Assembly (NCBI GenBank): GCA_039630055.1
Contig: JBCNVN010000017.1
Coordinates: 1-30,027 of the forward strand
Length of the DNA: 30,027 bases
Direction: 5' to 3'
DNA from: Candidatus Caldarchaeales archaeon
GTDB taxonomy: Archaea > Thermoproteota > Nitrososphaeria_A > Caldarchaeales > Wolframiiraptoraceae
The translations under genes were made by a program, and so were the position numbers. Below the pieces are notes generated by a model, which did not search any database, had not been told where the DNA came from, and saw nothing but the letters and a program-made list of their open reading frames with translations. This document shows positions 9,176-30,027 of the stretch, piece after piece. Positions within the stretch are counted from its first letter, which is position 1, and each line of letters begins with the position of its first letter.

Positions 9176-9270
9176 TGCTCCGGCCGGGATTTGAACCCGG
9201 GTCCCTGGCTCGAAAGGCCATTTTACGGCTCTTGGAGCCTGTATACTTGTCCGGGCTATACTACCGGAGC
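9176..9270 (-). tRNA. tRNA-Glu(TTC) with 20-nt intron at position 27/28 (9221-9240)
   Basis: Acceptor GCTCCGG/CCGGAGC. Removing AGGCTCCAAGAGCCGTAAAA gives anticodon arm CTGGC-CTTTCGA-GCCAG. T-arm CCGGG-TTCAAAT-CCCGG. Confidence 0.93.
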
Positions 9271-12731: not shown

Positions 12732-12827
12732 TGGGCCGGGCCGGATTCGAACCGGCGACCTCCGCCGCATCCCCGCCGATATATTCTTGCTGTCAGGGCG
12801 GCGTCATAGCCGCTAGACTACCGGCCC
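12732..12827 (-). tRNA. tRNA-Val(GAC) with 23-nt anticodon-loop intron (~12768-12790)
   Basis: Acceptor GGGCCGG/CCGGCCC, Val-type D-arm GTCTAGCGGCTATGAC, anticodon arm CCGCC-CTGACA[intron]C-GGCGG, T-arm GCCGG-TTCGAAT-CCGGC. Confidence 0.88.
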
Positions 12828-28357: not shown

Positions 28358-29374
28358 TTATGTGAGTCTTCTTCTTATTGTCATCTTCTCTATCGTCCAT
28401 CCTTCTTCTCTAGCTGTCTTCAAGCATAGTGGTAACCCTATCTCTATAGGCATAGGATACTCTTTACAGAATTCTGGTATAGATATCTTTAGTACTCGAG
28501 TCCTCGACTTTGATCTCTTTGACCTTGAATTATCTGATTCTGTTCTTGGAGGTGTGAGTATCTCCTTCAATTTTGATGTGAAGTCTTCGAGTATCTTTCT
28601 CTCATCTAATGGTATCGCTATCAATGTTGATTCTTCTGGAAGATTCTCCTCGAATAGGTATGATGCCATTCTTAGATGTTTAATGTAGGGTGGCTTAGTG
28701 TCAGCGTACAAGACCTCGTAGTTTCCTACAGAGTCTTCTCCTAAACATCTCTCTATTACTTCTCGGATTGTTGTACCAACTTTAAACATAGAATGCTGTT
28801 CACATCTACCTTGTCTTACTACTTGGAACCCTCTACCCAGATGCCTCAACCTCAAGACCGATAATTGGAGAACTCTATTAAAGCCGAGTACTTCTACTAT
28901 AGATATCTGAAGTAGTCTTGAGAGAGTGAAGACTACAGCTAAAACAACTATTACAGCTATAGAGGTTGCATAGATTAATGGTGTAGACTTCAAAGTCAAG
29001 CTTAATATATTGAAGACCGCTAAGAACGCTGTAAATAAAAGAATATTCTTATAGTCTCTCTCTAAAAGCTTGTCAGACTGATATATGAAGACCTTTCCAT
29101 CAACCTCTTCTTTCCTCAAAGGATAGCATCGCTCCGCTTTAAAAAGCAGTCTAAAAGCCAATCCTATGAAGCCTCTTACAGAAACCCCATTACATAGAAG
29201 GTCGTCCAGGTTCTCATCAAATACCTTCCTATCTGAAATGTTGAGCTGAAGCCTACTCCACAACTCATCTAATTCAATCCTACCATTATTCCTCCAAACT
29301 TCACACAAGATAATCTTCTTAACATTACCAATATTATAAGATGGTAGTAGCCAAAGTTTCAAGACCAAAACCAT
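28358..29374 (-). CDS. Hypothetical two-TM membrane protein with putative wHTH and ubiquitin-like domains
   Basis: Long ORF. ATG at 29374 follows GGAGGAGG (ORF track starts at 29422). Two TM helices mid-protein. Confidence 0.75.
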   Translation of the reverse strand: MVLVLKLWLLPSYNIGNVKKIILCEVWRNNGRIELDELWSRLQLNISDRKVFDENLDDLLCNGVSVRGFIGLAFRLLFKAERCYPLRKEEVDGKVFIYQSDKLLERDYKNILLFTAFLAVFNILSLTLKSTPLIYATSIAVIVVLAVVFTLSRLLQISIVEVLGFNRVLQLSVLRLRHLGRGFQVVRQGRCEQHSMFKVGTTIREVIERCLGEDSVGNYEVLYADTKPPYIKHLRMASYLFEENLPEESTLIAIPLDERKILEDFTSKLKEILTPPRTESDNSRSKRSKSRTRVLKISIPEFCKEYPMPIEIGLPLCLKTAREEGWTIEKMTIRRRLT

Positions 29375-29519
29375 CCCCTCCTCCCATAAAGCATACCAAT
29401 GTAAAAAAGCTGGAAAACGCACTTTCCACAGAAAACAGCCTAATCAAACCTTTCTCAAGACGATAAAAGAGAGCAGACTATATAAACATCAACCCAACAC
29501 CATAAGATAGAAGATAAAA

Positions 29520-30027
29520 TGAGTCTACGACATAGAGAGAACATAGTCGTAGATGATGTAGGAGCTACTCCCCATCCAGAGAAATCTGGATCCAGCCATG
29601 ATAGGCTGGCGGCGGGAAGAAAGCTGGACGCCCATAGCCCCAAGATGCTACCATAGGGGGAGAACGGTGGATGGGAGGGGTAGAAGGTCCCAGCACAAAA
29701 GATAAAGATGGTCTCAGAAGCCTCTGGTAAGGCTTGCCGCAACCCCATGAAACCCCTCAAACATGCCTGAGACAAGGGCATCCCGGGGGAAACATCATCA
29801 TCCCCGGGGGAGGGGTTGGGGGCCTACAGAGATGAGGCTTGAAAGCCTCCGAGGCGTGCTGGAGGCCGGGGGAGGCGGTTGCCTGGGGCTTCCGTCTCCG
29901 TCGAGGTTGCCTGGGGCGGCCTCGACTCCTCCAGCATACTTTGAGAGATGCTTGGGGCTTCTCTCAGGGGAAGACTGTTTCCAGTGTTATGCCTGGGGCA
30001 TCTCTGGAGGCGGTCAGCCTCGAACCA
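29520..30027 (+). ncRNA. Putative large structured non-coding RNA, may continue beyond the window
   Basis: Abrupt GC enrichment, more than 10 consecutive hairpins, purine-rich loops (GAAA), multiple G-U pairs only on the + strand, no credible ORF. Confidence 0.65.
29880..30000 (+). repeat. Four copies of TGCYTGGGGC, each capping a hairpin
   Basis: Copies at 29880-29889, 29908-29917, 29949-29958 and 29990-29999. Confidence 0.85.

Follow-up and report, generated by a model that had tools for sequence, protein, structure and literature searches.

In the bulge-helix-bulge (BHB) ribosomal RNA (rRNA) introns of thermophilic archaea, a GC-rich structured RNA is coupled to a LAGLIDADG open reading frame (ORF) of the I-DmoI type (I-DmoI being the enzyme of the Desulfurococcus 23S rRNA BHB intron), the ORF is enclosed by a long-range helix, and the introns are multi-copy with a patchy distribution. 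Structured non-coding RNAs are also tightly linked to the nuclease or recombinase of mobile elements in IS110 (bridge RNA) and in IscB and TnpB systems (omega-RNA). Further possible resemblances are to the hok/sok mRNAs, which are long folded transcripts with a 3' end that pairs with the 5' region, small ORFs that overlap (one of them for a short hydrophobic peptide), multiple copies and a narrow distribution, and to GOLLD, ROOL, HEARO and OLE, which are multi-domain RNAs of several hundred nucleotides with covariation, often on mobile DNA and found by composition or conservation. To our knowledge, few large structured RNAs are recorded in archaea beyond the universal ones, and we know of none for Caldarchaeales in Rfam 15. 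An RNA with features of each of these systems was found at the right end of the stretch analyzed here, which is the entire contig C9 (G000:C9:1-30027; JBCNVN010000017.1; hereafter the window, 30,027 nt) of a Candidatus Caldarchaeales genome (G000; GCA_039630055.1; 1.54 Mb, 80 contigs, about 92% complete, 39.4% GC). The structured region begins at position 29519, runs off the contig end and is followed in most related copies by a selfish nuclease gene.

We read window positions 29519-30027 as the 5' part of a cis-acting, plus-strand RNA domain of a selfish nuclease cassette that is restricted to Ca. Geocrenenecus (presumably a member of the Wolframiiraptoraceae within the Caldarchaeales), and not as an rRNA spacer, and we put the probability of this reading at roughly 0.55. 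Genomes, contigs and loci are referred to below by G, C and L numbers where copies have to be told apart.

Structure, strand and conservation of the RNA

GC content was 51-64.5% from position 29500 on, against 0.34-0.44 in the flanks. The plus strand of 29519-30027 folded to -243.4 kcal/mol, compared with -200.9 +/- 6.3 kcal/mol in 100 dinucleotide shuffles (z -6.8, none as good). The minus strand folded to -218.5 kcal/mol (z -6.6), leaving the plus strand 25 kcal/mol more stable. A reading of the window made from its letters alone (the sequence-only reading) had described the region as GC-rich, continuously hairpinned and at least 500 nt long. The composition and fold agreed with the first two points, and the helices that it listed were all recovered at their positions (TCTACGAC/GTCGTAGA at 29524-29553, ATCCAGA-GAAA-TCTGGAT at 29574-29591, CCAGCC/GGCTGG at 29592-29609, GTCTCAG/CTGAGAC at 29711-29773 around AAGCCT/AGGCTT, CCCGGGG/CCCCGGG at 29782-29808, GAGGCT/AGCCTC at 29834-29849 and the multibranch domain at 29852-30027). 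Its length was correct as a statement of presence and too low as a size, as the structure runs about 400 nt past the contig end.

Contigs C37 and C20 both begin with the 77 nt that end C9, without a mismatch, and this marks a fork in the assembly graph. Past the fork, both contigs continued with about 400 nt more of GC-rich, hairpin-rich DNA and then with protein genes. C9 to C37 was taken as the cognate path on the strength of the long-range pairing described below and of the homology of the C37 3' domain, and the RNA was followed along this path.

Rfam 15 was searched at gathering thresholds and returned nothing in the region and only three tRNA genes elsewhere in the window. At E-values up to 10, the best match within 29300-30027 was snoPyro_CD on the opposite strand (18.2 bits, threshold 45), and nothing credible was found. 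When the loci with copies were searched, only tRNAs exceeded threshold, with no RNase P, signal recognition particle (SRP), HEARO or C/D small RNA (sRNA), and the group I and group II intron models gave no match even at permissive E-values. Assignment to a known RNA family was rejected on the lack of an Rfam model match, and no family reached the gathering or E-value thresholds that would have contradicted the earlier statement that rRNA, SRP and RNase P signatures are missing. A protein-coding reading was rejected as well: the longest ORFs (108 aa on the minus strand, 88 aa on the plus strand) are not frame-conserved in homologs, an apparent 92-aa ORF across the 3' domain shifts frame between copies, and the core has 1-nt indels. 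The frame changes and the core indels together show that the region is not coding.

Covariation was measured separately in the core and in the 3' domain. For the core, the RNAalifold consensus of an 11-copy alignment held 57 pairs, with standard pairs in 97.8% of 597 cells. Both sides had changed in 14 of the 57 pairs, compared with 3.3 +/- 1.5 in column shuffles (0/500 reached 14), and at most 4 compensated pairs were counted when partners were slid by 1-3 columns. For the 3' domain, nine copies were aligned with the window genome represented by C37 60-500, and the consensus was closed, with 104 pairs and 90.1% of cells paired; 17 of the 104 pairs were compensated, compared with 6.9 +/- 2.1 in shuffles (0/500 as high). 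Full compensation was also seen across the 3-4 variants of hairpin 1 in the 5' module. Cells with G-U outnumbered cells with A-C by 55:7 in the core and 104:29 in the 3' domain, and if the opposite strand were read, pairing would drop to 89.8% and 82.1%, respectively. The excess of G-U over A-C places the structure in plus-strand RNA, the strand that the sequence-only reading had chosen from its G-U pairs. Its call of a probable novel structured RNA is upheld by the missing Rfam match, the compensatory changes (11 core and 9 3'-domain copies) and the G-U strand asymmetry.

Linkage to selfish nuclease genes

Downstream sequence was available for 12 copies, and a selfish nuclease gene followed the RNA in 10 of them (LAGLIDADG, 8; TnpB, 1; IS110-like, 1); transposase or TnpB genes had been among the things to look for past 30027. 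A helix-turn-helix (HTH)-LAGLIDADG gene was found within 0.1-1 kb and confirmed by Pfam in six copies (C20, L026, L017, L032, L034 and L014; LAGLIDADG_3, E 1e-12 to 4.5e-18), and L027 and L031, in which the N-terminal 90 residues are the same as in L014, bring two more. The best PDB sequence match of the LAGLIDADG protein was I-DmoI (E 8.5e-5). The partner in L033 is TnpB (NCBIfam guided_TnpB, E 6.7e-20), with the RNA about 1 kb 5' of tnpB. A truncated HTH ORF follows the RNA in L030, and a truncated 81-aa ORF without identification follows it in L029; the latter had been called TnpB-like by eye, and this was withdrawn (BLASTP to TnpB, E 0.047 over 13 residues).

Small ORFs lie between the RNA and the nuclease gene in some copies and encode an acidic peptide with the C-terminus ...(F/Y)(L/F)(D/N)NQ(W/R)W, a membrane peptide of 56-71 aa (L026, L033, L029, C20) and a 93-aa protein.

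The 93-aa ORF, or its remnant, ends in ...EDEEVxYIG, with a stop codon that overlaps the TTG at which the following gene starts. This junction was seen at L004 490-523, L005 743-770, G000:C77 381-410, G000:C8 30712-30745 (minus strand) and L033 1790-1812. The gene after it differs by place (LAGLIDADG, TnpB or IS110-like), and the junction could reflect translational coupling or a shared insertion target.

In three LAGLIDADG cassettes, a convergent tRNA gene (L005 1686-1759, minus strand; L014 6908-6981, minus strand; L017 3257-3372, plus strand) has its 3' end about 80 nt away from where the nuclease gene stops. The tRNA is tRNA-Asp(GTC) in G000:C20 and G003:C30, and in G002:C8 it is intron-bearing and identified by Rfam only. 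The LAGLIDADG frame of C20 has no stop and reads into the tRNA. A 15-nt T-arm-like segment of the C20 3' region (L005 230-244) is 87% complementary to 1696-1710, in the T-arm region of tRNA-Asp, and could be a chance match or a tRNA-derived remnant.

Long-range pairing of the RNA with sequence after the nuclease stop codon

An inverted-repeat scan showed that the 11-12 nt right after the LAGLIDADG stop (segment A') are complementary to an RNA segment just 5' of the core (segment A), at 5356-5366/6825-6835 in L014 and 528-539/2411-2422 in L026. Segment A of the window (GGTTGGGGGCCTAC, 29814-29827, plus strand) reaches across 1.5-2 kb and pairs with segment A', which lies immediately behind the nuclease gene, at about 1497-1515 of L004 on C37 and at 1615-1624 of L005 on C20.

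Duplexes were computed between the 60 nt 5' of the core and the 45 nt after the stop, with 300 shuffles each. Duplex energies (shuffles as good in parentheses) were -36.1 (0) for L014, -23.7 (0) for L031, -37.0 (1) for L026, -33.0 (1) for L017 and -26.2 (2) kcal/mol for L032; L027 has too little upstream sequence and fell outside the test. When segment A of the window was paired with A' of C37, the duplex reached -47.8 kcal/mol and 0/300 shuffles were as good. The segments covary, with GUU/AAC in L014, L031 and the window lineage, GUG/CAC in L026 and L017, and U-G in L032. L034 has GGAGG/CCUCC where all others have GGGGG/CCCCC.

The A/A' helix is 9-16 bp long, with a bulge of 1-3 nt beside it in L014 and L026; a canonical 3-4-3 BHB motif was not seen there by eye, and no dedicated BHB search was made. 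A T5-T7 run occurs within 25 nt after A' in 5 of 7 copies, and a run of 5-7 T is the usual archaeal termination signal. Since the C-rich segment after the nuclease stop pairs with the RNA, the RNA and the nuclease ORF are most likely parts of one transcript.

Copies and distribution

DNA similarity searches gave weak matches in three genomes of the same genus, mostly at contig ends. A covariance model (R1; 179 positions, 61 pairs) was built from the core of four copies and run on 35 genomes of the family, where it found four loci, in G000, G002 (two loci) and G003. Positive genomes were thus 3 of 8 in Ca. Geocrenenecus, counting G000, and none of the 27 genomes in the four remaining genera had a hit; G001 carries the 5' module at a contig end. 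Prokaryote records, viral contigs and metagenome contigs were searched with a two-motif pattern, which recovered G002 and G003 plus 10 hot-spring metagenome contigs, nine of them with a true R1 match, and had 0 matches in viral contigs. Two pattern matches without an R1 match were discarded as chance, one in AT-rich coding DNA of Metallosphaera yellowstonensis (L024) and one in a metagenome (L035), and a 55-nt DNA match in G040 was absent from the model searches. A profile search with nhmmer over all loci and the whole G000 genome found no remote homologs beyond the known copies. Core identity was 86-100% among the other copies and 61-66% between them and the window copy.

The copies have different upstream flanks and lie at unrelated loci, beside prpD and tRNA-Asp (G003), beside a second, intron-bearing tRNA identified by Rfam only (G002) and beside unrelated genes (C9, C1). 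No att-like or target-site direct repeats were found, and insertion of the integrase type next to a tRNA was rejected. Within G000, contig C1 closes with a second copy of the 5' end, which is 89% identical across 107 nt with homology beginning at 29519; the first hairpin of this copy has a stem wholly different from that of the window and still pairs. Independent contigs from three DNA runs of one study break into pieces of 56-284 nt inside the region. Their summed depth, which is not a copy number and includes other organisms, goes from about 15-19 in the flank to 50-200 inside, and at their loose ends the C1-type flank reappears, along with another variant of the 5' end and with alternative hairpins in the core. 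The fragmented contigs and alternative flanks give the picture of a repeated family with many variants. The RNA family is multi-copy, with many copies situated at the ends of contigs, and has so far been seen only in Ca. Geocrenenecus.

Anatomy of the RNA

The RNA totals about 0.9 kb, with a 5' module, a variable domain and the core in the window and a 3' domain off it. Its first 509 nt (29519-30027) form the GC island with the fold and covarying homologs given above; all window features in this section are on the plus strand. A TATA-like box (TATATAAA, 29479-29486) lies about 37 nt upstream of the first conserved hairpin and is a candidate archaeal promoter, judged from sequence. In other copies, A/T-rich TATA-like boxes were seen by eye 25-45 nt upstream of the first conserved structure.

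The 5' module (29519-29609) is common to the window, C1 and G001. In all three, an invariant TGAG precedes hairpin 1 (29523-29554), whose stem sequence is different in every copy, with pairing always kept (GUCUACGAC/GUCGUAGA in the window, CCUGCGAUC/GAUCGCAG in C1, CUUGUGGU/ACCACAAG in G001 and CUGCGAG/CUCGCAG in G002/G003). Hairpin 1 is followed by the single-stranded motif TGATGTAGGAGCT (29554-29566), invariant in 3/3 aligned 5' modules and replaced by ACGACGTAGGATC in the G002/G003 copies, and then by two hairpins (ATCCAGA/TCTGGAT and CCAGCC/GGCTGG, 29574-29609) that are present in the minimum free energy (MFE) fold. The stems of these two hairpins are invariant in the window, C1 and G001, and their loops vary in length and sequence. 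At 29610-29700 the window has a lineage-specific GC-rich domain, where an alignment of the upstream half gave an A-rich spacer instead in copies of the G002/G003 type.

A helix GGTCTCAG...CTGAGAC (29710-29773) encloses an AAGCCT/AGGCTT hairpin; the GGTCTC...GAGAC helix is kept in all copies, and the inner hairpin only in the window, L033 and L028. The next hairpin (CCCGGGGG...CCCCGGGGG, 29782-29810) is in the MFE fold, with its position conserved and one pair changed on both sides. After segment A comes a hairpin GAGGCT-TGAA-AGCCTC (29834-29849), which is an insertion of the window lineage and a gap in all other aligned copies. The core multibranch domain (29852-30027), from which R1 was made, consists of a closing helix GUGCUGGAGG/CCUCCAGCAU around two hairpins and of two further hairpins; GCC(U/A)(G/A)GG(Y)GC is found in four of its loops, and the joiners CAGGGGAAGAC and GGUCAGC are invariant. 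The remaining 390 nt or so, the 3' domain, lie on C37 (L004 78 to about 470), with the closed part at about 150-470 of C37.

Other features were recorded around the copies. The genes just upstream of two G000 copies (window 28358-29422, minus strand; L006 1270-1986, plus strand) appeared by eye to be winged-helix plus transmembrane proteins and had no family matches, and the G002 and G001 copies have a small zinc-ribbon-like ORF on the opposite strand upstream instead. Of the three tRNA genes of the window (12732-12827, 9176-9270 and 2036-2120, all minus strand; Rfam 15), at least two carry long insertions of 25 and 29 nt that resemble archaeal introns, and one such insertion sits in the D-arm region, where its position is non-canonical. 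On C37, a weak match to the C/D-box sRNA sR17 was found at L004 2999-3053 (plus strand; 26.1 bits, threshold 36, E 0.03).

The IS110-like protein on contig C37

The gene that follows the RNA on C37 (L004 515-1378) encodes a 287-aa protein; relatives were found at G000:C8 30148-30684 (minus strand) and at loci L036-L065. The protein had no significant Pfam, PHROG, NCBIfam or PDB sequence match, and Pfam DEDD_Tnp_IS110 matched its family only at E 0.03-0.19. Homologs fell into 45 clusters annotated as hypothetical in metagenome-assembled genomes of Nitrososphaerota and Thaumarchaeota. A structure was predicted with AlphaFold (AF2) from an alignment of 41 of the 45 clusters (P0037 and the short P0043-P0045 left out), which gave a mean predicted local distance difference test score (pLDDT) of 89.8, compared with 53 from the single sequence. 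The top Foldseek matches were IS621 (8wt9/8wt6) and ISCro4 (9t56), over the full length, with E about 1e-6, probability 1.00 and template modeling (TM) scores of 0.57-0.60, followed by TIGR-TasR. Members of the family were detected in 23 of 76 related genomes, and a single genome can have as many as 32 matches. Many of these are fragments that contain stops or lie at contig ends, and the family thus behaves as an insertion sequence. The fold match to IS621 and ISCro4 and the multiple copies, some of them broken, mark the protein as a probable recombinase of the IS110 family, with the fold of a RuvC-like DEDD domain plus a Tnp domain.

In G006, the repeat unit of this element begins at about the start codon, extends roughly 150 nt beyond the stop and leaves out the upstream DNA. 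At the 29 other IS110-like loci, neither a significant R1 hit nor an nhmmer match was found (one weak hit in L055, 18 bits, E 0.016). The RNA is thus not the bridge RNA of the IS110-like element, and the idea that the structured region is merely the end of a known element runs against a repeat unit that leaves the RNA out. The family of about 290 aa is probably an unclassified archaeal IS110-like insertion sequence, predicted to carry its own RNA in the 3' tail of about 150 nt. Although Pfam misses it, the family is abundant in Caldarchaeales. One preprint states that its database might lack an archaeal clade of IS110 ancestral to Nop5 (10.1101/2024.06.21.599552), and a lineage of this kind could close such a gap.

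Two other IS110-like loci have GC-rich leaders. In L042 (G022:C12, a different genus), a stretch of about 670 nt with 64-81% GC (1-670) lies directly upstream of the IS110-like gene; it matched no Rfam family, showed no detectable homology with the RNA of the window and may be a second, unrelated structured leader. In L036 (G006:C180), positions 1-400 hold GC-rich hairpins, an acidic ORF ending in ...EYLDNQWW and a membrane-peptide ORF before the IS110-like gene; this small-ORF module is the same as in the RNA cassettes, and the leader was not homologous by nhmmer and had no Rfam match. When closure was tested in the G006:C180 and G022:C12 leaders, 123/200 and 37/200 shuffles, respectively, paired as well, in a test that is blunted by long GC-rich windows.

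Interpretation

Under the preferred reading, a cassette of 2-2.7 kb would comprise a TATA-like box, the RNA, optional small ORFs, one nuclease gene, a C-rich segment and usually an oligo-T run. A single transcript, bounded by the TATA-like box and the T-run, would most likely carry the RNA together with the small ORFs and the nuclease ORF, and the 3' end of this transcript would be base-paired back into the structured domain through A/A'. The RNA may act in cis by protecting the mRNA in a thermophile, by gating translation, as a processing signal or in several of these ways, and the cassette may have spread between loci through the homing or insertion activity of its nuclease.

Several observations weigh against this reading. 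The 3'-domain statistics are less clean than those of the core, with 4-11 compensated pairs in slid controls (11 when slid by +1) and further pair types reached by 191/500 shuffles, which is not above the shuffles. The homologs are close kin from one genus and related hot-spring metagenomes, so that shuffle controls overstate significance, and many compensatory changes rest on a single split between the window lineage and the G002/G003 lineage. Pairing of A with A' was poor in L034 (-11.8 kcal/mol, 95/300 shuffles as good; the segment is cut by a contig end) and weak between A of the window and A' of C20 (-38.2 kcal/mol, 17/300 as good), the TnpB copy (L033) has no A' segment, and A and A' are inverted repeats at the DNA level too. 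C-rich ends with a T-run that resemble A' also follow IS110-like genes without a detectable RNA copy, and the A' of C37 could therefore belong to the insertion sequence. The C9-to-C37 path itself was deduced from the 77-nt overlap, 3'-domain homology and pairing strength, with no spanning read.

The RNA could instead be an independent, trans-acting non-coding RNA gene (e.g., the scaffold of a ribonucleoprotein, RNP) that serves as a landing pad for site-specific selfish nucleases, which would insert downstream and use its read-through. Three mechanistically unrelated selfish genes do occupy one slot, the IS110-like and TnpB genes are also found elsewhere without the RNA, the family is conserved more strongly than the downstream sequence, and the invariant loops (GCCURGGYGC four times) and the joiner CAGGGGAAGAC suggest contacts with a ligand or protein. 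This remains a tentative alternative, well behind the cis-acting cassette: among the 12 copies no empty one without a nuclease-type ORF downstream was found, covarying pairing between the RNA and the post-stop segment argues for a single transcript, and C20 and G003 have no oligo-T run between the RNA and the ORFs. Descent from an archaeal intron, with A/A' as a processing stem that is cut by the splicing endonuclease or by the RNA itself and that releases, and perhaps circularizes, an RNA containing the core, the 3' domain and the ORF, was judged doubtful. The LAGLIDADG partner is nearest to I-DmoI among solved structures, such introns likewise consist of GC-rich structured RNA from which a long-range helix loops out the ORF, and the small bulge adjoins the helix in two copies; a host gene is missing, however, the flanks are AT-rich promoter-like DNA and an oligo-T run or a convergent tRNA, no canonical BHB was seen by eye, and no group I or group II model matched. 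A new class of archaeal selfish element can be proposed with similar reserve to the landing pad, as a promoter-driven, intron-like unit in which an RNP or ribozyme scaffold of about 0.9 kb is constant, the nuclease is exchangeable and A/A' directs excision or circularization of an RNA that would encode the nuclease and also act as its partner.

A role at the DNA level, as a hairpin-rich origin, a recombination site or, through A/A', terminal inverted repeats, is unlikely. It would suit the good folding of both strands (z -6.8 and -6.6), the perfect inverted repeats of 10-12 bp around a nuclease-bearing unit of 1.5-2 kb and a multi-copy family that breaks assemblies, yet the G-U over A-C ratios and the fall in core pairing from 97.8% to 89.8% on the other strand, or if pairing derived from the duplex, contradict it. 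Structural RNAs typically stand out by high GC in AT-rich thermophile genomes, the 5' module is conserved and moves with the unit although it falls outside A/A', no target-site or att direct repeats were found, and we know of no use of terminal inverted repeats by LAGLIDADG, TnpB or IS110 enzymes. Slightly less probable still is a guide-type RNA, analogous to a bridge RNA or omega-RNA, that programs the adjacent nuclease or recombinase. LAGLIDADG enzymes recognize DNA through protein, and at least 8 of the 12 partners are of this kind; TnpB omega-RNAs sit 3' of their gene, and the single TnpB-linked copy, which would otherwise favor a guide, has the RNA on the other side. The RNA of C37 does lie 5' of an IS110-like recombinase, where bridge RNAs are reported to be encoded in IS110 elements (PMC11208160), but the IS110-like unit of G006 begins at the start codon with upstream DNA excluded, and 29 other IS110-like loci lack a copy. 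No guide segments were identified, and a bridge-like match with two loops did not turn up, no search aimed at one having been made. The leader or external spacer of an unassembled rRNA operon, finally, was rejected as highly improbable. The feature does stand at a contig end, and the assembly had no match to a 16S rRNA gene in a search whose control was positive in 14/14 named genomes, so that the rRNA operon of this 92%-complete genome is unassembled. Both graph continuations, however, lead to protein genes, with no rRNA by Rfam scan on C37, C20 or the end of C1, and the complete copies in G003 and G002 have no rRNA beside them and are flanked by prpD-type genes, LAGLIDADG genes and tRNAs. 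The sequence-only reading had itself named an rRNA spacer as the finding that would undo it, and the C37 and C20 continuations point the other way.

Comparison with known systems

The literature was searched for the RNA, and no description of it was found; paper supplements might list overlapping intergenic clusters or archaeal IS110 clades. The portion available of a 2026 preprint on prokaryotic non-coding clusters does not mention LAGLIDADG or homing endonucleases (10.64898/2026.10.21.760802). The RNA is long, multi-domain and supported by covariation, it is coupled to three selfish nuclease families, and a covarying helix ties the end of the message back to it. If the cis-acting reading is true, the cassette would illustrate a way in which selfish genes may stabilize or control their messages at high temperature. 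The intron-like reading, if true, would bear on the relation of archaeal introns to free-standing homing endonuclease genes, and the proposed new element class would be a living intermediate between such genes and mobile introns.

Among guide systems, the likeness goes furthest in the two copies linked to an IS110-like protein of the IS621/ISCro4 fold and to TnpB. Unlike a bridge RNA, however, the cassette RNA is five times longer and lies outside the IS110-like repeat unit. An omega-RNA overlaps or follows the 3' end of tnpB, whereas this RNA is 5' of tnpB and has a TnpB partner in 1 of 12 copies; it is mostly partnered with protein-guided LAGLIDADG enzymes and has no Rfam or model match. The cassette differs from hok/sok in that the membrane-peptide ORF is absent from at least five copies (L014, L027, L031, L017, L034) and in having a nuclease as its main ORF, an archaeal host and no known antisense RNA. 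In contrast to GOLLD, ROOL, HEARO and OLE, the RNA is archaeal, confined to one genus, matched by no Rfam 15 model and likely co-transcribed with an ORF. It is, in general kind, a structured RNA coupled to a homing nuclease, and it is not a member of any known family.

BHB rRNA introns such as that of I-DmoI have rRNA or tRNA host exons, which the cassette lacks. Its structured part of about 0.9 kb lies wholly upstream of the ORF, LAGLIDADG can be replaced in the slot by TnpB or an IS110-like gene, and no canonical BHB motif was recognized by eye. The nearest known arrangement is nevertheless the archaeal LAGLIDADG-encoding intron, from which the cassette is set apart by standing without a host gene and by having promoter-like and terminator-like signals of its own, a TATA-like box at one end and an oligo-T run at the other.

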